Origin: a virus
Virus genome (UHGV): UHGV-0035288
DNA: 44,443 nucleotides
Strand: one strand, 5' to 3'
A program made the position numbers and the translations under genes. Positions 530-43,773 of this stretch are shown piece by piece. The notes beneath the pieces were generated by a model. It worked only from the letters and a program-made list of their open reading frames with translations. It ran no database searches and had not been told where the DNA came from. The stretch's first letter is position 1; each line of letters opens with the position of its first letter.

Positions 530-734
530 CCGCAGTATGCGCGTCGTGGACGAAATTGTTAAACGCTACCAAATTAACCCGAGGGAGAACAAAGTGCGGC
601 GGGTCAGTCGCCCGGAGCAATTGCTCGGCCTGGACCTTACCGGCTGGCTTGTAATGACTGCTAGCAGCCATCTTGTGTGTGGCACGTTTTCCGCCCGTAT
701 TGTTCGTGAAAATTTGATCAAGGAGTTGAAATGA
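510..734 (+). CDS. hypothetical small protein
   Basis: Track ORF starts at GTG 501; first ATG at 510 preceded by GAGAGTGAG. Overlaps dam 3' end; stop overlaps next start (ATGA at 731). Confidence 0.35.
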   Translation: MNILVVDRSMRVVDEIVKRYQINPRENKVRRVSRPEQLLGLDLTGWLVMTASSHLVCGTFSARIVRENLIKELK

Positions 735-1201
735 AATTACTGATTTGCGATTTGGATGGCGTTATTAACGGCTCAAGCGATGCGCGTGCCGACCTGGTGC
801 CTGGCATAAAAACTAAATCCACCTTTTGGGCGAAGTGGCACAAAGCGCATATACGCGAAGATCTGAACATGGATATGCTGCCGCTGCTGACCATGTACAA
901 AGAGCAAGGCTTCGAGATCGCGTATCTGACCAACCGGCAGCGAGAATGTTGGGACACCACCGCCGAGCAATTGGAGGTATTCCCGGTAGGCCGGTTGTTT
1001 ATGCGCCACATGCTGGACGACACCCCGCCACCTGAGTTTAAGGCGTGCGCCGTGTTCAAAATGGTGTGCTATGCCGACGTGTCGGAACTGGTCATCATTG
1101 AAGACTGTCCGAAGAACATCGCGGCAATTCGTCGGGCGTGCGGCGATCTGGTCCCGAAGATTTATGCGATAAACGTTGCAAAATTCACTTGCAACCAATA
1201 G
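731..1201 (+). CDS. HAD-superfamily hydrolase (phosphatase-like)
   Basis: AGGAG at 721-725 then ATG 731. N-terminal LICDLDGV matches HAD motif I (DxDG). Confidence 0.55.
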   Translation: MKLLICDLDGVINGSSDARADLVPGIKTKSTFWAKWHKAHIREDLNMDMLPLLTMYKEQGFEIAYLTNRQRECWDTTAEQLEVFPVGRLFMRHMLDDTPPPEFKACAVFKMVCYADVSELVIIEDCPKNIAAIRRACGDLVPKIYAINVAKFTCNQ

Positions 1202-1211
1202 GTTGGTTGCA
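1190..1211. promoter_or_regulatory. perfect inverted repeat TGCAACCAA-TAGG-TTGGTTGCA (paired copy of the recurrent TTGGTTGCA motif)
   Basis: Read directly at 1190-1198 and 1203-1211; overlaps stop codon of the HAD gene and precedes gene at 1266. Confidence 0.5.
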
Positions 1212-1265
1212 GTATCTTAACCACATCGGGAGGCAATACCGCCTCCCACTAAAACGGAAAACATC

Positions 1266-1757
1266 ATGAAAGCATACGAATACTGCAAAAACGCCGCCAC
1301 CACTATGGAACAGCGCGGGAAAGAAAACGGCTATGACAACGCGAAAGAAGAACGCAGCGCTAAACAGATCGCCGCCGTGTTTAACGCGCTTACCGGGCGC
1401 GACCTGTCCGAGCAAGAAGCCTGGACCTTCCTGATCTGCCTGAAGCTGGTGCGCCAGCACCGTAAGCACCAGGAAGATAATATCGTGGACCTGGTAGCGT
1501 ATGCCGCCCTGCTGGGCGAATCTTACATGACCGTGCATGATGAGATTCAGATCGACACAACGGCAGCACAATTCGAAAGCCTAAAAGGCTGGCATTCTTC
1601 CGCGGGCAAGACTGTTAAGGCCCGCGATTTTGGGGTCGTAGCCCCGGACGTCCAGCCTATGGTCGTGCTCACCGGCGAAGACGGGTCGAAAATCTGCATG
1701 ACGCAGGAAGATTTCCGCAACATGGAAAAAACACTGGTGACTGGCGCACTTAAATAA
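1266..1757 (+). CDS. hypothetical protein
   Basis: ATG at 1266; 163-aa ORF in early arm; no motif recognised with confidence. Confidence 0.5.
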   Translation: MKAYEYCKNAATTMEQRGKENGYDNAKEERSAKQIAAVFNALTGRDLSEQEAWTFLICLKLVRQHRKHQEDNIVDLVAYAALLGESYMTVHDEIQIDTTAAQFESLKGWHSSAGKTVKARDFGVVAPDVQPMVVLTGEDGSKICMTQEDFRNMEKTLVTGALK

Positions 1758-4140: not shown

Positions 4141-4169
4141 TTGGTTGCAATCCTGGTCGAGCGGTGCAA
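4141..4169 (+). promoter_or_regulatory. TTGGTTGCA motif plus degenerate second copy (CGGTGCAAT) upstream of lipoprotein moron
   Basis: TTGGTTGCA at 4141-4149, GGTGCAAT at 4162-4169, 35 nt upstream of ATG 4204. Confidence 0.4.
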
Positions 4170-4203
4170 TACTAAAACTCGACCAAATATAGGAGATGAT
4201 AAC

Positions 4204-11641: not shown

Positions 11642-14284
11642 TCATCGTTTGTAAAGTACACCACCCGGTTTCGTCGCCTTCACGATCTCGGCCTTCACCG
11701 CCTCGGTGATTTGCTTGCCGAACGCCTGCGCGGTACGGGGGTCTGGCCCGCTGACACTGGTATCCGTTTTACCCGCCCCCGTGTAAACGTTAGTCGTCAC
11801 GACCATACCACCGCCTGCGCCCGACGCGGCAACGCCCAATTTCCCGTCCGGCCCGCGCTTCAATGGCATGATGGCCTCGGGTCCGGCCTCCCCCATCAAT
11901 CCAGCGCCTTTAGCGAACGCCTGGACGCCATAACTGAAAAAGGTGGGCTGGCTTACCACTTTCCCCGAATAGGCCGCGAGATTGCCGCCTGTGTACGCTC
12001 CGCCGTCCGCATTCTTAGTGAGGCCAGAGAAGATAGCGCCGAACAATCCGTTTTTGCCGCCGTCGCCACCGAAAGCGCTAACGATGGACTTGAACGCCTG
12101 CGAGGTAGCCAGCTTGATTAGTTCGCTCAGGATGGATTTAACCATATCCTTTGCGTTCAGCTTGCCAGTCTCGAAAAACTCGTTCATCGTGTCTTGCATA
12201 GCGCTGAATGTGAATTTCGTGAGCGACGCCATCTGCGTATATCCGTTACCCATTTCATCCACGCTATCTTTAAGACCGCGGCTGAAGCCATCCCATAGCG
12301 AGGCGTTAGCGCCGGTCTGCGCCTCCTGCACTTCGCGCAACTTAGACACCGCCTTGTCGATATCGGTATCGCTAGCGCCAACCCGTTTCAGGCGATCAAT
12401 TAGCTGCAATTCTTCACGTAGGTTTGCCGCTTCGCGAGTGGAAAGCGCATACCCAGCGGCGGTGGCTTTTAGTTCGGCGTTCTGGTTCTTAACGAAGGCA
12501 TCGATCTGCGCGTGCGCCTTAACCTGCTTCTCTTTCGCGTCCAGCAATTTGGCTTCTTCGACGATCTGCTCGCGCACTTCCTTCACGCGTCCGAATTCGA
12601 CCATCTGCTGCTTTTCTGCTGCCGTTAGCGCTCTTTCTTTGCTCGCAGCGATTAACTGCTCATTGTCGGCGATCAGCTTGTTTAAGGCCGCTTGAGCGCG
12701 TTGCGTGCGGGTCTGCGTAGATGCGTTGGCTTCGATCTGCTTGCCGGATTCTCGAAGCTGGGCCAGTTCGCTCCGTGCGACTTCCAGCATTTTCATACCG
12801 GCATCCACGCGAACAGCCGCGGCCTTCTTCGGGGCGGGGTCTTTGTAGCGCTCGTTGACCTGCTTAACCGCCTCGGCTAGTTCTTTCTCATCAATAACGC
12901 CGCGCTTATTCAGCAAATTGAGGCGGGCGATCTCGTCGGCGCGCTTCTTAGCGTTGGTGGCGTATTCCTTCTCGAACGCGGCGCGGTCACGGGCAGTGCG
13001 GTTGGCCTCCTCGTTCGCCTTTGCGGATTCGTCTGCGGCGCGGGCGTTGTCTCGCTCCGCACGGTTACGCAGGGTGAGCGACGCCACCACTTTTTCCTGG
13101 GCGACCAGTTCGCTGTAAAGCATGTTAATACGTGCTTTCTGCGCTTCAGTCATTACCCCACCGGCAGCGTTTACCGCTTTCATCTCGGCATAATAAGCCG
13201 TGGTCATGCGCTGCAATGACTCACGCGCTTTCATCTCGGACTCATTGGAGGACTGCGCGCGGCCCACGTCCAGGATTGCATCCCACATAGATTTAGCTGC
13301 CGATGTGACGACGTTCATCGACCGCTCAAGCGTACCCATGTTGGACTTGATTTCATTGGTCATGCTGGTGAACGACGCAGCGGCTGTTTTGTTAGCCAAC
13401 GCAACTGCGTCTGTCTCACGACCCGCATCAACGAGCGACTGTACCTGCTGGATCTGCGCTTCGTTTACGACGTGATACTTATCCGCCAGCGCACGCAGTC
13501 CGCCAACGGGGTCGGTTGACAGCTTTGCCACAGCCGCTACCACATCCTCGATCGGCTGGCTGGACACCTTCGCGAAGTCATTCACTACCTTAGCCAATGC
13601 GCCGAAGTCACCACCCGCTTTCACACCTGCCGCCGCCAGCGCCTGGATTGTGTCACGCGTCTTGCGAAAGGACCCGCCCATGCGCTCGGCGTTCTCGGAC
13701 AGCACCAGGATCTGGTTAGCGGTGAGGCCGGAGATATTACCAGACAGCGCCAGCGTCTTGTTAAGCGCTGCCACCTGGTTCTCTGCTCGGGACGTAATTG
13801 CCACGCCCACGCCTAAAGTCGCCGTTACAGCGGTGAGGCCGATCCCTACGGGGCCGAGGAAGCCCGCAACATACCGAAGCGTGTTACCCAGTCCGCCAAA
13901 TGCGCCGGTTAGCTGTGGTAACTGCTGAAGCATGACGCGGTGCACCGGCATACCCATCTCAAGCGTAACCGCGATATCCTGTAACTGGAATGCGGCGTTA
14001 CGCGAGGCAAAGCCCAAGTTTTTTGTCGACATGCCTAATCGGCTGGCGAGTCGCTCCTGTTTCGTCATGCCGTCGGCGGCGCGCTGCGATTCAGTCGCTA
14101 ACTTTTCCATTCCGCCCGCGGCGTCGCCAGTAACCTTTTTCGACTTGCCGAGGGTGTCGTTTAATTTCTTTACTTTCTGTTCTGTGTTCTCGGATTTCTG
14201 CGCAAATGTGTCCAGCACAGTATTAGCCGTTTTAATTTGCGCGACGTCCGCCTTTAGCGTGATGCCCGCTGCCTGATCTGCCAT
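11642..14284 (-). CDS. tail tape measure protein
   Basis: 880-aa Ala/Lys/Glu-rich coiled-coil ORF with Gly-rich C-terminal region; ATG at 14284; lies between the GT position and the tip genes. Confidence 0.85.
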   Translation of the reverse strand: MADQAAGITLKADVAQIKTANTVLDTFAQKSENTEQKVKKLNDTLGKSKKVTGDAAGGMEKLATESQRAADGMTKQERLASRLGMSTKNLGFASRNAAFQLQDIAVTLEMGMPVHRVMLQQLPQLTGAFGGLGNTLRYVAGFLGPVGIGLTAVTATLGVGVAITSRAENQVAALNKTLALSGNISGLTANQILVLSENAERMGGSFRKTRDTIQALAAAGVKAGGDFGALAKVVNDFAKVSSQPIEDVVAAVAKLSTDPVGGLRALADKYHVVNEAQIQQVQSLVDAGRETDAVALANKTAAASFTSMTNEIKSNMGTLERSMNVVTSAAKSMWDAILDVGRAQSSNESEMKARESLQRMTTAYYAEMKAVNAAGGVMTEAQKARINMLYSELVAQEKVVASLTLRNRAERDNARAADESAKANEEANRTARDRAAFEKEYATNAKKRADEIARLNLLNKRGVIDEKELAEAVKQVNERYKDPAPKKAAAVRVDAGMKMLEVARSELAQLRESGKQIEANASTQTRTQRAQAALNKLIADNEQLIAASKERALTAAEKQQMVEFGRVKEVREQIVEEAKLLDAKEKQVKAHAQIDAFVKNQNAELKATAAGYALSTREAANLREELQLIDRLKRVGASDTDIDKAVSKLREVQEAQTGANASLWDGFSRGLKDSVDEMGNGYTQMASLTKFTFSAMQDTMNEFFETGKLNAKDMVKSILSELIKLATSQAFKSIVSAFGGDGGKNGLFGAIFSGLTKNADGGAYTGGNLAAYSGKVVSQPTFFSYGVQAFAKGAGLMGEAGPEAIMPLKRGPDGKLGVAASGAGGGMVVTTNVYTGAGKTDTSVSGPDPRTAQAFGKQITEAVKAEIVKATKPGGVLYKR

Positions 14285-14349
14285 TATGCAGTCCCCCTTT
14301 TTATGCAGTTGCCGTCGGTCATTGTATCAGCGAATTTAAAACAAACCTT

Positions 14350-14664
14350 ATTCAGTCTCAGACGAGGGGGGCCATTGACCCCCGTCTAGTCTGAAAGACT
14401 GGGGTGCTGTCCCGCTGTCCCGATCGGCTAAAACCCGCGGCAGCACTGGAGGGGACGGGGTGCTGTCCCGATCTGTCCCGCCTCATTCTGTCCCGCTTTT
14501 TGTCCCGCTTACTTTATGCACTAAAACTGCATAGACATTCACATTTTGGGGGTGGGACAGATCGGGACAGCACCCCTGTCCCGCTTTTAATCTATGCAAT
14601 GTAAGTGGGTAAATATGCAGTTTTAGAGGTGCGGGACAAAACGGGACGTCCCGCCTGTCCCGCT
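14350..14664. repeat. iteron-rich element, copy 1 (hairpin plus at least 13 GTCCCG-core repeats in both orientations)
   Basis: TGTCCCG(C/A) at 14408, 14416, 14464, 14474, 14489, 14501, 14577, 14656; GTCCCGC at 14648; inverted GGGACA/CGGGACA at 14554, 14563, 14632, 14642. Conserved hairpin CAGTCTCAGACGAGGGGGG...CCCCCGTCTAGTCTGAAAGACTGG at 14353-14402. About 70% of this block is repeated at 31188-31366. Confidence 0.8.
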
Positions 14665-14667
14665 TCG

Positions 14668-20131: not shown

Positions 20132-20218
20132 GCTATCCCCCTGGGATTGTGGCAAAGCGGGCCACCCGCTTGACTTCACGCTTCTAATATTATCAGCGAT
20201 AAAAATAATCGCAAAATT

Positions 20219-20258
20219 CGCTTGCAATCCTTGTATTGGTTGCAATATATTGGTTGCA
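20219..20258 (+). promoter_or_regulatory. promoter region with two tandem TTGGTTGCA motifs upstream of moron
   Basis: TTGGTTGCA at 20236-20244 and 20250-20258; TTGCAA/TATATT hexamers; followed by CACCAACAACGAGGAC leader shared with region 30971-31000. Confidence 0.5.
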
Positions 20259-20280
20259 CACCAACAACGAGGACACAAAA

Positions 20281-21045
20281 ATGAGACTGACCAAAGGCAT
20301 TAAAAACCAGATTCTGGCTAACATTCTGCGCGACCACGAAATCGCTACCGAAGCCAAATCAATCATGACGGACTCGCGCGACCTGGCGTATGACATTACG
20401 TTGCACTGTATGCCGGTGGGCATTCATACGTTCGCCGAACTATTCGCACACATTGAAGCAATCAACGATGACCCGTCGCAGATGTACGGCGTCTGCGTAT
20501 ACACCAACAAGGCGACGTATAGTTATAACACCGACCGCCCCAAAGGTATTGGCAGCGTTTACGACGCCACTTTCGAAATCAACGCAGGCGGTAACGTTCG
20601 CACCTTGTCATTGAGCGGCGATGGGCACCGATACCGAGTACATCGCGGATACTGGGAGTATAAATACATGAATAAGCTATCTCCCGATCTCGGCGATATC
20701 GTACCGGGGTTCGAGGAAGTTATGTTGGCTTCGGTGTGTGAAGTGGACGAGGACGGAAAATCGCTTCCGATCTATAAGCCACGCTGCCGTGCTGATTTCC
20801 CGGCGGATCATGACTTCTGTAAGCGCTTGGACCGTAACGACCAGGCCCGCCGCGAATTGCGTGCGAAGTATGACGCATTCAAGTTGACCGTTACCGGTGT
20901 GCTTGACCTGCACAATACTGACAAGAAGCTGATTAAGGCATGGCCTGAAGTTGAGCAATTCATCCCTTACCCGGACAAGCCAAAATCCACGGCGGTGGCG
21001 CTGGATGTGAAAACTCTCAACGAGATTTGCGGTATTCCGCGCTAA
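20281..21045 (+). CDS. hypothetical protein encoded by a moron inside the structural module
   Basis: GAGGA SD then ATG 20281; 254 aa; opposite strand to all neighbours, own promoter motif and own terminator. Confidence 0.6.
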   Translation: MRLTKGIKNQILANILRDHEIATEAKSIMTDSRDLAYDITLHCMPVGIHTFAELFAHIEAINDDPSQMYGVCVYTNKATYSYNTDRPKGIGSVYDATFEINAGGNVRTLSLSGDGHRYRVHRGYWEYKYMNKLSPDLGDIVPGFEEVMLASVCEVDEDGKSLPIYKPRCRADFPADHDFCKRLDRNDQARRELRAKYDAFKLTVTGVLDLHNTDKKLIKAWPEVEQFIPYPDKPKSTAVALDVKTLNEICGIPR

Positions 21046-30368: not shown

Positions 30369-30634
30369 TTGCTCAGTCTCCAGTGTTTGCCTACCCGCTC
30401 AACGGCGGGCTTCCGGCGTAATGTAATACGAATGCCAATTGGTTGCAAGGACGTTTTTATGGCTAACCCATGCTCCCTGGCGAACTGGCGCAAGTAGCGG
30501 GTCTGCGTTAATGGCTTCACATCGTCGCGATAGCACCAGAACACAGAATCGCCCTCATTCGCATTCTTAGCCCATATTCGTATGCAATGCAGTGGGATGC
30601 TCCACGAAAGCTGTTTAGCTCGTCTACGGCCCAT
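30365..30634 (-). CDS. hypothetical protein
   Basis: 89 aa; AAGGGG SD then ATG 30634. Confidence 0.5.
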   Translation of the reverse strand: MGRRRAKQLSWSIPLHCIRIWAKNANEGDSVFWCYRDDVKPLTQTRYLRQFAREHGLAIKTSLQPIGIRITLRRKPAVERVGKHWRLSK

Positions 30635-30970: not shown

Positions 30971-30991
30971 CGTTCAGTCCTCATGTTGGTG

Positions 30992-31031
30992 TGCAACCAA
31001 TATAGCAGGGTGCTGGAGTGGGTGCAACCAA
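30992..31031 (-). promoter_or_regulatory. promoter region with two TTGGTTGCA motifs (minus orientation)
   Basis: TGCAACCAA on plus at 30992-31000 and 31023-31031; same leader (TTGGTTGCACACCAACA..GAGGAC) as upstream of 20281. Confidence 0.5.
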
Positions 31032-31182
31032 TATTAATCACGCGCATGAAAAAGTTGATCGCTATCTGCTGTAACTGCAAACTGCATTTTTCACCCACCA
31101 TTCTGCAACGCGCATTGGTTGCCTAGTTCATCGACGACCGCAATTCGCATCTTGTTGCCGTGCGTTATGCAATCCCGGATTT

Positions 31183-31370
31183 TATGCAGTCTCAGACGAG
31201 GGGGGTGCCAGACCCCCCGTCTAGTCTGAAAGACTGGGGTGCTGTCCCGCTGTCCCGCTCCTCGCCAGGCCGCGTCATCCGGGGCGGGACGGGGGTGCTG
31301 TCCCGCTTTGTCCCGCCCCTGGTCTGTCCCGCTTTTTGTCCCGCTTACTTTATGCAGTTTTATTGCATAA
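31183..31370. repeat. iteron-rich element, copy 2
   Basis: Same hairpin (31188-31237) and TGTCCCGC repeats (31243, 31251, 31299, 31309, 31325, 31337; inverted GCGGGAC at 31284) as 14353-14520; in 480-bp intergenic gap downstream of primase-helicase. Confidence 0.8.
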
Positions 31371-31450
31371 CTATGCATTATACTCACACTACACGGCAAC
31401 CAACACGACCGACTAAAAGCACGCAAAATGGCAACCAATGCGCGCAAAAT

Positions 31451-33725: not shown

Positions 33726-34055
33726 TTACTTAGAAGTTTTATTATTGCGTACCCAGGAGCGCACTGTGCTCTGATTAATTCCGGTCAACTCGGCAATCAT
33801 CGCCCAGGATTTGCCCTCGGCGCGCAAACGGATAACCTGCTTTTTGTATTCTTCCATTTCTTCATTGTGCTTTTGCAGCTTGCTGGCTGCCGTACCGTTG
33901 AGCAATTCCAGCCTGGCGCGTAATTCTTTTTCTACACTGCGCAGGCGCTCTACCTCAAATAGCACCGCCCCAACGGCATCGGTATAAGCCCATGACCGGC
34001 TTGTTTCACTGCTAACAGTCTTCGTTAACATTTCGATTGCGTCGTCGATATTCAT
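33726..34055 (-). CDS. HTH DNA-binding regulator
   Basis: 109 aa; C-terminal helix-turn-helix (SWAMIAELTGINQSTVRSWV); GAGGG SD; first gene of leftward transcription from divergent control region. Confidence 0.55.
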   Translation of the reverse strand: MNIDDAIEMLTKTVSSETSRSWAYTDAVGAVLFEVERLRSVEKELRARLELLNGTAASKLQKHNEEMEEYKKQVIRLRAEGKSWAMIAELTGINQSTVRSWVRNNKTSK

Positions 34056-34185
34056 TGCTCTGCCCTCAGTTGGTTAATGACCAACGAAACTACACCTAAA
34101 ACCGCAAGGTGTCAAATCCTTTGGATATTGAAACGGGCGCGCACGCGTGTAATAATAATTCCCGTCTCATTGTCTCTTATTGGTT

Positions 34186-34220
34186 AGCGCCGTTGCATTT
34201 TGCCTCGGCGCTTTTTTTTT
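34186..34220 (+). terminator. orphan rho-independent terminator in the divergent control region
   Basis: AGCGCCG-13 nt loop-CGGCGCT followed by T9 (34212-34220); no coding gene precedes it on the plus strand within 3 kb. Confidence 0.5.
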
Positions 34221-34231
34221 GAAATTAGTTG

Positions 34232-34260
34232 TTGACTCCCTTCTGCAACCAATCTAATAT
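34232..34260 (+). promoter_or_regulatory. strong sigma70-like early promoter (TTGACT-17-TAATAT)
   Basis: -35 TTGACT 34232-34237, 17-bp spacer containing GCAACCAAT, -10 TAATAT 34255-34260. Confidence 0.6.
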
Positions 34261-34458
34261 TCCCCTCGTCGACAGGATGCAGGACGCAAACTGGAGAGGG
34301 GCAACGCAGGGGCCGGATCGAAGTGTCGGGATTCCCAACCGTGATGATATAACCCGGTCCACTACCCGAACGGGAGAACGCGCAACCGGGCAATATGTTA
34401 AGGCCACCGACGAAGTTAACTGCCGACACCTAAACTTAACCAATCGGAGATATAAAAC

Positions 34459-34981: not shown

Positions 34982-35009
34982 CGGCCCGCTAATCTGCGGG
35001 CCTCTTTTT
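34982..35009 (+). terminator. rho-independent terminator
   Basis: GGCCCGC-TAATCT-GCGGGCC hairpin followed by TCTTTTT. Confidence 0.6.
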
Positions 35010-36893: not shown

Positions 36894-37128
36894 AGTATTC
36901 GCAATCTTATTGATGTTTTTGCTCGGCGCGCTGGGCTTTATCCTGCATTGCGTGCAAGGCGTGTTAATGGTGGCGTGGATGATTCGCCATCCGACCCGCT
37001 GGCTGGATGACGGCTATAGCGAAGTTGCCGTCGATTGGGTGGAAAAGAACATCGAACGCCCGCCGCTAAGCTGGATCGAGAACGCTACCAACTACGTGAC
37101 CAGAAATCTTTTTAATGAAAATGCTTGA
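36886..37128 (+). CDS. small membrane protein
   Basis: 80 aa; GAGGA SD; hydrophobic N-terminus (VFAILLMFLLGALGFIL). Confidence 0.4.
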   Translation: MNKVFAILLMFLLGALGFILHCVQGVLMVAWMIRHPTRWLDDGYSEVAVDWVEKNIERPPLSWIENATNYVTRNLFNENA

Positions 37129-37153
37129 CCGCTTAGGCGCAACCAAGTAGATT
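37125..37153 (+). promoter_or_regulatory. sigma70-like promoter (TTGACC-17-TAGATT) with GCAACCAAG motifs
   Basis: -35 at 37125-37130, -10 at 37148-37153; GCAACCAAG at 37137-37147 and 37154-37163. Confidence 0.5.
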
Positions 37154-37218
37154 AGCAACCAAGCCGAACGGGGTGGCTTCCAATAACCCCGATACATGTG
37201 AAAATGAGGAATTGGAAA

Positions 37219-37998: not shown

Positions 37999-38017
37999 GG
38001 GCAAAGCCCACTATTCA

Positions 38018-38041
38018 AGCCCGCTTAATGCGGGCTTTTTA
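38018..38041 (+). terminator. rho-independent terminator
   Basis: AGCCCGC-TTAAT-GCGGGCT followed by T5. Confidence 0.65.
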
Positions 38042-40515: not shown

Positions 40516-40793
40516 TGACACCAGAAGGCAAGATTCAAAGTCACCTGATGCGACGGGTGAAAGAGGTAGGCGGATTCTGCCGCAAAATGGCATGGGAGGG
40601 GCGCGCGGGTGCGCCCGATCTGATTATCATCATCAACGGCAAAATAGTGTTCGTCGAAGTGAAGCGCCCGGGCGGAAAACCGAAGCCACACCAGGTACGC
40701 GAGCATGAGCGGATGGCCCGCCGCGGTGCGGACGTTCGCGTCATAGACAACATCGCCTACTGTGATTTATTGGTTGCTGAATTGGTCGCATAG
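40515..40793 (+). CDS. VRR-NUC domain nuclease
   Basis: ATG 40515 overlaps polymerase stop (TAATG), AGGA SD; 92 aa; PD-(D/E)XK core PDLIIIINGKIVFVEVKRPGGKP...QVREHERM. Confidence 0.65.
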   Translation: MTPEGKIQSHLMRRVKEVGGFCRKMAWEGRAGAPDLIIIINGKIVFVEVKRPGGKPKPHQVREHERMARRGADVRVIDNIAYCDLLVAELVA

Positions 40794-40802
40794 CGGTATA
40801 GT
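40774..40802 (+). promoter_or_regulatory. sigma70-like promoter (TTGCTG-17-TATAGT) overlapping TTGGTTGC motifs
   Basis: TTGGTTGC 40770-40777 and TTGGTCGCA 40782-40790; inside the 3' end of the VRR-NUC gene. Confidence 0.45.
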
Positions 40803-41014: not shown

Positions 41015-41038
41015 GGCGGGCTTGTCCCGCCATTTTTG
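41015..41038 (+). terminator. rho-independent terminator
   Basis: GGCGGG-CTTGT-CCCGCC hairpin followed by ATTTTT. Confidence 0.6.
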
Positions 41039-43710: not shown

Positions 43711-43715
43711 ATTGG

Positions 43716-43744
43716 TTGCATAATCATATTGGTTGCATTATATT
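43716..43744 (+). promoter_or_regulatory. sigma70-like promoter (TTGCAT-17-TATATT) built from two tandem ATTGGTTGCA motifs
   Basis: Motifs at 43712-43720 and 43729-43737; -35 at 43716-43721, -10 at 43739-43744. Confidence 0.55.
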
Positions 43745-43746
43745 GA

Positions 43747-43773
43747 GGGTGTCCGGTTGGGACGCCCTTTTTT
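43747..43773 (+). terminator. terminator-like hairpin immediately downstream of promoter
   Basis: GGGTGTCC-GGTT-GGACGCCC stem (one G-T wobble) followed by T6 (43768-43773). Confidence 0.5.

Follow-up and report, generated by a model that had tools for sequence, protein, structure and literature searches.

A gene-junction palindrome in an Escherichia Dhillonvirus as a candidate operator-covered promoter with a leader hairpin

The junction and its gene context

The subject of this study is a short palindrome, followed by a GC-rich hairpin, at a gene junction of the viral genome UHGV-0035288, which was analysed as a single stretch of 44,443 nucleotides (the window throughout). Judged by DNA similarity, the window is an Escherichia Dhillonvirus, an HK578-like virulent siphovirus: 159 phage records align with its first 3 kb at 80-95% DNA identity, almost all of them from Escherichia or Shigella Dhillonviruses, segment 1000-1500 likewise finds Dhillonvirus matches at 80-95%, and a complete Dhillonvirus gene set could be transferred from HK578, relative to which, as to the BASEL records, the window runs in reversed orientation. 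The junction lies near the end of a long block of plus-strand genes for replication and DNA modification. On its upstream side, open reading frame (ORF) and homology place a HAD-type phosphatase gene homologous to HK578 gp28 (731..1201, plus strand), whose product, with N-terminus MKLLICDLDG, scores 2e-36 against the PHROG 'polynucleotide kinase' phosphatase family and 8e-5, under the curated cut-off, against Pfam HAD IIIB. Downstream, on the same strand, follow a gene for a DUF6378 protein (1266-1757; ORF and profile match) and a homologue of HK578 gp26 with unassigned function (1800-2375), a two-gene unit that ends in a bidirectional terminator picked up by terminator scan (2378-2397, both strands). 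Between these two genes stands a GC hairpin without T run, GCGGGC-cgaa-GCCCGC at 1766-1781, second to the one at the junction itself.

Read directly, the palindrome consists of TGCAACCAA at 1190-1198, TAGG at 1199-1202 and TTGGTTGCA at 1203-1211. It is the perfect 9-4-9 inverted repeat that a first, sequence-only reading of this DNA had reported, and, as stated there, it overlaps the end of the phosphatase gene, the TAG at 1199-1201 terminating the ORF and the final codons (ACT TGC AAC CAA TAG) spelling out the first motif copy. The hairpin GGGAGGC-aatacc-GCCTCCC (1228..1247, plus strand) is likewise as described, with no T run on either strand: its arms at 1228-1234 and 1241-1247 form a 7-bp stem closed by a 6-nt loop, preceded by ACCACATC and followed by ACTAAAAC. 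Alone it is predicted to fold at -15.4 kcal/mol, and the RNA of 1180-1270 folds into two hairpins at -27.8 kcal/mol (z = -4.45), with 0 of 200 shuffles as good.

A predicted promoter under the two motif copies

The palindrome covers a sigma70-type layout on the strand of the downstream genes, TTGCAA-N18-TATCTT at 1189-1218, and this predicted promoter is what the sequence-only reading had overlooked. The predicted -35 hexamer TTGCAA (1189..1194, plus strand) is overlapped by motif copy 1 (T-GCAACCAA-T, forward, 1190..1199), and copy 2 (minus strand, 1202..1211, with TTGGTTGCA on the plus strand), again an exact match, fills the 18-nt spacer to 1 nt before the predicted -10 hexamer TATCTT (1213..1218, plus strand), both hexamers being assigned from sequence and relatives. 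The transcript start is predicted near 1225, about 7 nt past the -10. Directly upstream of the -35, and overlapping it, lies a further inverted repeat with an A/T-rich centre, GTTGCAA-aattcac-TTGCAAC (1175..1195, plus strand), which is possibly an UP-like element or a second site; a related block occurs at 20211-20227 (repeat family D15).

Conservation of this layout was followed through nine complete genomes together with 14 contigs from IMG/VR, some of them duplicates of the genomes. The -10 is kept in 17/17 distinct junction sequences, across three motif arrangements, and the -35 TTGCAA in every junction sequence still abutting the motif pair, whatever the motif orientation, at a spacer of 17-18 nt; the bases from the -10 to the hairpin are variable among relatives, and the hexamers are conserved. 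Orthologous sites reach 9/12 consensus matches, and in a consensus scan of 400 bp the sole promoter-like site lies at the junction on the gene strand both in HK578 (TTGCAA-18-TATAGT) and in slur06 (TTGCAA-17-TATATT). Other promoter types fit less well: a sigma54 promoter (GG-N10-GC) was rejected on the spacing in TTGGTTGCA, and a MotA-box-like replacement of the -35 on the motif having no single fixed position relative to the -10.

Motif arrangement at the junction in related phages

The commonest form of the junction is the same 22-mer followed by (N)TATAGT, with the -10 TATCTT found in the window and in StarDew, and the palindrome arms are invariant in 13/14 IMG/VR contigs holding the downstream gene and in 5/9 complete genomes. 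In slur06, McMelon, TH11 and contig L010 the two copies are instead direct, TTGCAACCAA-taat-GCAACCAA-c-TATATT, while LM40P1 carries reverse-direct copies 17 bp apart, TTGGTTGC-aatccgtat-TTGGTTGC-ac-TATATT; the latter phage has lost the phosphatase gene and retained the two motifs and TATATT. Envy and Sloth (the type shown by L016, L020, L031 and L038) have the 22-mer in exactly reverse-complemented form, with CCTA rather than TAGG at the centre, in what looks like an inversion between the arms; this flip removes the TAG, and the phosphatase ORF then extends through the hairpin. Because copy orientation differs between lineages (inverted, direct, reverse-direct), palindromy is not the conserved feature. 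As far as sequence comparison can tell, the conserved object is a promoter covered by two motif copies, palindromy being one of several tolerated arrangements. The symmetry had been taken as the expected mark of a site for a dimeric protein, an inference that the direct and reverse-direct copies at the same junction in other lineages do not support: neither fixed inverted half-sites nor a symmetry conserved in orthologous sites was found.

The junction is also a place of gene gain. McMelon and TH11 have an extra 336-nt ORF between hairpin and next gene (L004 24377-24838, L007 29397-29858), flanked by duplicates of a 29-nt block comprising aaccacatc and the hairpin. In LM40P1 (L008), the homologue of window 4141-4175 has its single-motif region replaced by TTGGTTGC-aatcacgta-TTGGTTGC-ac-TATATT, and the presence of the same two-motif design at two loci suggests cassette copying between loci.

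A short asymmetric word recurring across the genome

That the arm sequence recurs across the genome, as the sequence-only reading held, is borne out by its count: exact TGCAACCAA occurs 11 times against 0.54 expected, and 0/100 shuffles reach 11. The 8-mer GCAACCAA has 18 copies in the window, and their alignment confines the information to the 10-mer T-GCAACCAA-T and shows no further conserved bases at any constant spacing, so that the motif is a short asymmetric word and not half of a larger fixed structure. Fourteen of the 18 lie in non-coding DNA, which makes up 7.9% of the genome (binomial P about 9e-13), and a fifteenth is palindrome copy 1, overlapping the phosphatase stop codon. The most restricted part is AACCAA, nearly all of whose non-coding occurrences fall within the full word, the exceptions being TAACCAA(T/C) variants grouped in the early control region. 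Eight other Dhillonvirus genomes hold 11-14 exact 9-mers each. At eight other sites followed through nine genomes, copies are invariant bar single-genome exceptions while the bases between paired copies vary freely, and paired copies elsewhere are direct, with start-to-start distances of 14, 16, 17, 31 or 35 bp. Over-represented 20-fold, mostly non-coding and invariant while its flanks vary, the word has the appearance of a protein-binding site, in agreement with the original proposal. The same proposal made the junction the sole place where the motif is perfectly palindromic; it does hold the only face-to-face pair of copies at a 2-8 nt gap in the window, but half-motif partial palindromes exist elsewhere (TTGGT-N5-ACCAA at 20251-20265 and 30985-30999, GTTGGT-N5-ACCAAC at 34070-34086).

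The association with promoters extends beyond the junction. In a position weight matrix (PWM) scan of both strands, the motif lies on 7/16 of the best sigma70-like sites (37125, 34232, 20222, 30999 minus, 30420 minus, 43716, 40774), and a -10-like hexamer abuts 5/18 copies against a 3.4% background (P = 3e-4). The word occupies the spacer and abuts the -10 at 34245, 37139, 43729, 20236 and 1203, supplies the -35 as TTGCA at 43712, 31024, 30439 and 1190, and covers the -10/start region at 37155, 20250 and 30993. PdhR- or GntR-type sites (TGGT...ACCA) were considered and rejected, the half-site order being reversed here.

A full-text search with the motif sequence returned unrelated primers only, and no description of the motif was found in literature on Dhillonvirus or HK578 promoters or transcripts. 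Scanning IMG/VR for the direct form GCAACCAA-N4-GCAACCAA was uninformative, with >120 unrelated contigs, many of them with several tandem matches, while the palindrome scan recovered 13 Dhillonvirus contigs and one unrelated AT-rich 211-kb viral contig (L028, TGCAACCAA-atca-TTGGTTGCA at 1117-1138), whose match to the 18 specified bases is taken as chance.

The hairpin of the predicted leader

The GC hairpin is present in every relative, with stems GGGAGGC/GCCTCCC, GGGGGC/GCCCCC, CGGGGC/GCCCCG or GGGGC/GCCCC, and the variation amounts to A-U to G-C exchange and paired length changes, with one-sided intermediates in SO-1 and L011 (A.C), L009 (G.U) and LM40P1; the loop (A/G)ATA(C/T)N is fairly conserved. 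As paired stem indels misalign the 3' arm in the alignment, stems were compared by eye and by folding of each sequence. In nearly all relatives the stem begins 9 nt past the -10, and a start near 1225 would leave about 3 unpaired nt ahead of it.

An intrinsic terminator at 1228-1247 was rejected, as there is no T tract on either strand and the terminator scan does not list it; a T run accompanies 10/14 perfect GC hairpins of non-coding window DNA, which look terminator-like, and is absent here. The scan did make a minus-strand terminator call on the palindrome itself, with a AGTGAATTTT tail, which faces no upstream gene. RNase III needs longer stems than the 7-10 bp present here, and a site for this enzyme was rejected on that ground. 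Rfam 15 gave no match up to E = 1 on either strand of window 1000-1500. We infer a non-terminating RNA structure that would be 5'-terminal on the transcript of the predicted promoter, with stabilisation of the mRNA against 5'-end-dependent decay as its likely role by analogy. Stem-loops of the ompA type stabilise bacterial mRNA from the 5' end. They share with the present one a stable hairpin a few nt from the (here predicted) 5' end and upstream of the ribosome-binding site; the junction hairpin differs in being also internal to upstream-derived transcripts, and its position at the 5' end depends on a predicted start.

A candidate binding protein

The word is most probably read by a 109-aa protein encoded at 33726..34055 (minus strand), for which the evidence is circumstantial. 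The gene is the first of the helicase-primase transcription unit, and Pfam and AF2 predict a coiled coil and a helix-turn-helix (HTH), the sole HTH among 20 small or unassigned window proteins scanned. Pfam matches comprise HTH_23 (2.3e-7), Sigma70_r4_2 (8.4e-7) and HTH_28 (1.7e-6), all above cut-offs, and the PHROGs family label is 'transposase'. The AF2 model (mean pLDDT 82.5) features a short helix, a long helix spanning 22-79 and the HTH at the C-terminus, for which the best Foldseek matches are LuxR/GerE-type, IstA and resolvase HTHs, SdiA, RhlR, IstA, GerE and NarL among them, with a root-mean-square deviation of about 1 A over 34 residues and a probability of 0.9-0.99 at an E of about 1, which is not significant. 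Such profile and model-based matches indicate a DNA-binding fold only, the tri-helical HTH class of LuxR/GerE, sigma-70 region 4 and transposases, and assign no function; querying PDB sequences with the protein's profile gave no meaningful hit, only coiled-coil noise and a designed repeat protein, and neither that search nor Foldseek found a characterised homologue.

Homologues (P0001-P0024) are confined to Dhillonvirus-like contigs. Their residues 47-106 are essentially invariant and the first ~45 hypervariable or unrelated, and the N-terminal 45 residues appear to be exchangeable. The HK578 copy is more divergent, with the recognition helix IN(Q/R)ST(V/I)R(S/Q)W kept. In two contigs from relatives whose helicase gene shows only ~69% DNA identity, the invariant domain and the word are both retained; there, tandem word copies fill promoter spacers as TTGAC-GCAACCAA-n-GCAACCAA, and the word also occurs in the HTH gene's own leader and in tandem after the helicase-primase gene. 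It is the combination of a frozen reading head, a word with many sites and a copy beside its own gene that makes this protein the regulator candidate.

Proposed mechanism and competing explanations

We lean towards reading the palindrome as two copies of a genus-wide 10-bp word laid over an internal sigma70 promoter with a leader hairpin, under regulation by the phage. Motif enrichment, non-coding placement, conservation of motif, hexamers and hairpin, and the orientation variants were computed directly, and it is from these that promoter activity, start site, identity of the binder, sign of regulation and role of the hairpin are deduced. The internal promoter would re-initiate transcription of the last two genes of the replication and modification block (1266-2375). 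With copy 1 on the -35 and copy 2 in the spacer, a bound protein would compete with RNA polymerase, for which reason we interpret the site as an operator for switching the promoter off or setting its timing, and since such occlusion would be independent of orientation, it would explain the persistence of inverted, direct-forward and direct-reverse lineages. The protein would be a phage-made HTH repressor or timer of early and middle promoters, this junction among them, and the GC hairpin would become a stem-loop at the 5' end of the RNA made from this promoter and be read through by transcripts from upstream. The question raised by the junction is then less one of read-through than of re-initiation and its control. 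The feature itself is real, conserved and functional-looking; the sequence-only reading described it correctly and in part misread it as a stand-alone dimer site in a passive junction.

Several points weigh against the operator-covered promoter. The window's own -10, TATCTT, is weak, and its site, with 8/12 consensus matches, falls under the scan threshold and went uncalled. Because TTGCA is part of the motif and scores as a -35 in its own right, the PWM association is partly circular, and in a control, motif-borne TTGCA pentamers precede a good -10 more often than other TTGCA at only P = 0.014. About half only of the motif clusters lie on convincing promoter-like sites; three variant copies GGCAACCAA surround the putative origin, one copy falls within a tail gene, and the predicted promoter of the HTH gene in the window bears only a degenerate copy, TTAACCAAC. 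A host protein would account just as well for the invariance of the motif among diverged phages, and, as several copies sit exactly at a weak TTGCA -35, the effect could be activation rather than repression at some promoters. A search of the accessible literature turned up neither mapped transcript 5' ends nor measurements of binding or expression for any Dhillonvirus.

Were the site a true dyad-symmetric operator, whose dimer needs inverted arms and which owes its special character to symmetry, the perfect 9-4-9 repeat and the invariance of its arms in most contigs and in over half of the complete genomes would follow, and the long helix modelled for the candidate binder could mediate dimerisation. 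Set against this are the four genomes with direct copies and the one with reverse-direct copies, all with promoter hexamers intact, and the fact that the motif is palindromic nowhere else in any genome, other pairs being direct; we consider such an operator unlikely. Less probable again is a role at the RNA level only, with the two hairpins acting in a polycistronic mRNA as a processing or stability signal and no promoter involved. Both hairpins fold well, the GC stem shows paired changes, its duplication around the inserted gene in McMelon and TH11 and the T-less hairpin after the next gene would be in keeping with it; yet the first hairpin is impossible in the direct-repeat lineages, which keep motifs and -35/-10 all the same, the motif elsewhere occurs in both orientations to transcription and often upstream of predicted starts, and the stems are, as stated above, short for RNase III.

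In an equally improbable alternative the motif is read by a replication initiator or by a helicase loader, the junction being a secondary or titrating site and any effect on transcription incidental. It draws on the position of the HTH gene, which in every genome ends about 10 nt short of the helicase-primase gene, on motif copies that flank region B (a possible origin according to the SO-1 record) and on tandem copies 15-16 bp apart after the helicase-primase gene in distant relatives, but copies are mostly single or paired over at least nine promoter-like regions rather than in iteron-like clusters, and those at the putative origin are the variant GGCAACCAA. Initiator and regulator roles may be compatible; the initiator role leaves the dispersed promoter sites unexplained. 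Binding by the host repressor CytR, finally, is very improbable. CytR sites are reported as TGCAA-N2-3-TTGCA, TTGCAA or AYGTGCAAC-N10-13-GTTRCATT, with inverted or direct half-sites at variable spacing, and CytR acts cooperatively with flanking CRP sites (PMC3454398). The palindrome can be written as ACTTGCAAC-N10-GTTGCAGT and then agrees with that consensus at 8/9 and 7/8 positions by manual count (paired octamers AATGCAAC / GTTGCATT), and the flexibility of TGCAAC/GTTGCA half-sites would suit the orientation variants seen. Genome-wide conservation nevertheless rests on AACCAAT, outside the CytR octamer: variants TAACCAAT keep this portion and lose TGC, the AA before TGCAAC in the octamer is unconserved, and no CRP-like site (TGTGA-N6-TCACA, <=2 mismatches) occurs in seven motif regions scanned.

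Relation to known systems

The operator-covered promoter to which we lean is of a known kind, a conventional phage switch with no new principle. In lambda, P22 and 186, operator-covered sigma70 promoters are bound by phage HTH regulators. The likeness lies in short sites over -35, spacer and start, in several promoters sharing one word and in a probable autoregulatory site beside the regulator gene. The present case differs in its asymmetric word, used in either orientation and at variable spacing rather than as fixed dyads, in a virulent phage with no lysogeny module, and in a candidate regulator built from a long helix and a C-terminal HTH, for which no characterised homologue was found. Motif and regulator appear to be undescribed in the literature.

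A second comparison is with the promoter-early stem-loop (PeSL) cassettes of the T4-type phages RB49 and phi1, which combine a polyG/polyC stem-loop with a sigma70-like promoter preceded by A/T-rich sequence and are found at gene-shuffling points (PMC2839356, PMC4122927), the stem-loop being described as an upstream terminator or attenuator and recombination between cassettes forming mini-circles (PMC2839356). Partly comparable units, a predicted promoter followed by a hairpin, are seen at 1189-1247 (with an A/T-rich stretch upstream), 37125-37190 and 43716-43773, and the cassettes flank points of indel or replacement: the extra ORF of McMelon and TH11, the phosphatase loss in LM40P1, and three different genes after 20222; HK578 is devoid of the two ORFs that follow the 43716 promoter. 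The two-locus design of LM40P1 is a further likeness. The order is opposite to that in PeSL, however, with the promoter preceding the stem-loop, the junction hairpin is not followed by a T tract, and what the cassettes have in common is the 10-bp word alone, whereas PeSL cassettes are long sequences 85-100% identical. We therefore do not file the junction element as a PeSL.

A far wider version of the operator model, speculative and in our view unlikely, would have a single protein made early by the phage, its DNA-reading head frozen and its N-terminal half freely exchangeable, read the 10-bp word at -35s, spacers, starts, its own leader and the putative origin, as a master timer that represses or activates promoters and is coupled to helicase-primase loading, while units of word, promoter and hairpin would serve as portable recombination cassettes shuffling accessory genes, a siphovirus counterpart of PeSL.

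Dhillonviruses are among the most often isolated coliphages and figure in the BASEL collection, in defence-system studies and among therapy candidates, and no published transcription map of them was found in the literature. The operator model, if true, would provide a promoter/operator map for the genus, with about nine regulated promoters, name a candidate master regulator and offer a compact, orientation-tolerant 10-bp operator that might serve in the engineering of these phages. It further points to a way in which accessory genes could swap at fixed junctions.

Other motif-bearing promoters and sites

Further predicted promoters with the word were found mainly by PWM; for five of them transcript starts are predicted at about 34267, 37160, 43751, 20258 and, on the minus strand, 30992. 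At 34232..34260 (plus strand) the early promoter TTGACT-N17-TAATAT has the motif in its spacer (34245-34252), and the homologous HK578 site is annotated as a promoter in its record. This promoter belongs to the early control region 34056-34458, which also contains divergent promoters at 34087-34115 (minus, HTH gene) and 34128-34156 (plus), a terminator-like hairpin with T9 at 34187-34220 that lies ahead of the motif-bearing promoter and could define a very short transcript, variant TAACCAA(T/C) sites at 34070, 34180 and 34438, and, within the HTH gene's leader, GTTGGT-cattaa-CCAAC. Upstream of the SSB gene, the promoter TTGACC-N17-TAGATT (37125..37162, plus strand) bears motifs at 37139 in the spacer and at 37155 directly past the -10. 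The promoter TTGCAT-N17-TATATT (43716-43744, within 43712..43773, plus strand), with two reverse copies 17 bp apart, overlaps a terminator-like hairpin and T run at 43747-43773, such that a start ~7 nt past the -10 would fall within the 5' arm; transcripts from upstream could terminate here while those of the local promoter escape.

The promoter TTGCAA-N18-TATATT (20222..20266, plus strand), with motifs at 20236 (spacer) and 20250 (-10/start), precedes a variable gene, here that for an Nmad5 protein (nucleotide modification associated domain 5, 20281-21045, Pfam 2.6e-56); HK578, TheodorHerzl and SO-1 have different genes at this position behind the same promoter. On the minus strand, TTGCAC-N17-TATATT (30999-31027, within 30984..31031) heads the gp49-to-lysis block, with motifs at 31024 (-35) and 30993 (-10/start). 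The -10/start regions of these two predicted promoters share a 21-nt perfect inverted copy, TGTTGGTGTGCAACCAATATA, at 20246-20266 and 30984-31004, which contains the small palindrome TTGGT-gtgca-ACCAA. Upstream of a Lar-like gene, the motif (40770) and a degenerate copy TTGGTCGC lie on TTGCTG-N17-TATAGT (40770..40802, plus strand), and within the gp50 homologue the motif (30439) is the -35 of TTGCAA-N17-TACATT (30420..30448, minus strand). A minus-strand 8-mer match at 4141..4149 falls in the divergent region between the lateral tail-fibre and lipoprotein genes, where TTGCAA, 17 nt and AATACT on the plus strand allow a weak promoter-like reading.

The three GGCAACCAA copies, found by 8-mer match (31115 minus, 31396 plus, 31431 plus; 31115..31438, both strands), flank repeat 'region B', a putative origin that adjoins the helicase-primase gene. 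It is one of two related repeat-rich non-coding regions, 14284-14665 and 31165-31369, which share TGTCCCGC/GGGACAG and TTATGCAGT units, with similarity reaching 89% over stretches of 36-104 nt; their counterparts are the 'region A' and 'region B' annotated as possible origins in the record of Sodalis phage SO-1. Terminator-like hairpins with T runs also stand at 34983-35002, 38017-38037 and 41015-41031, after the gp44, SSB and Lar-like genes, and the plus-strand replication block resembles a series of promoter-gene-terminator modules more than a single operon.

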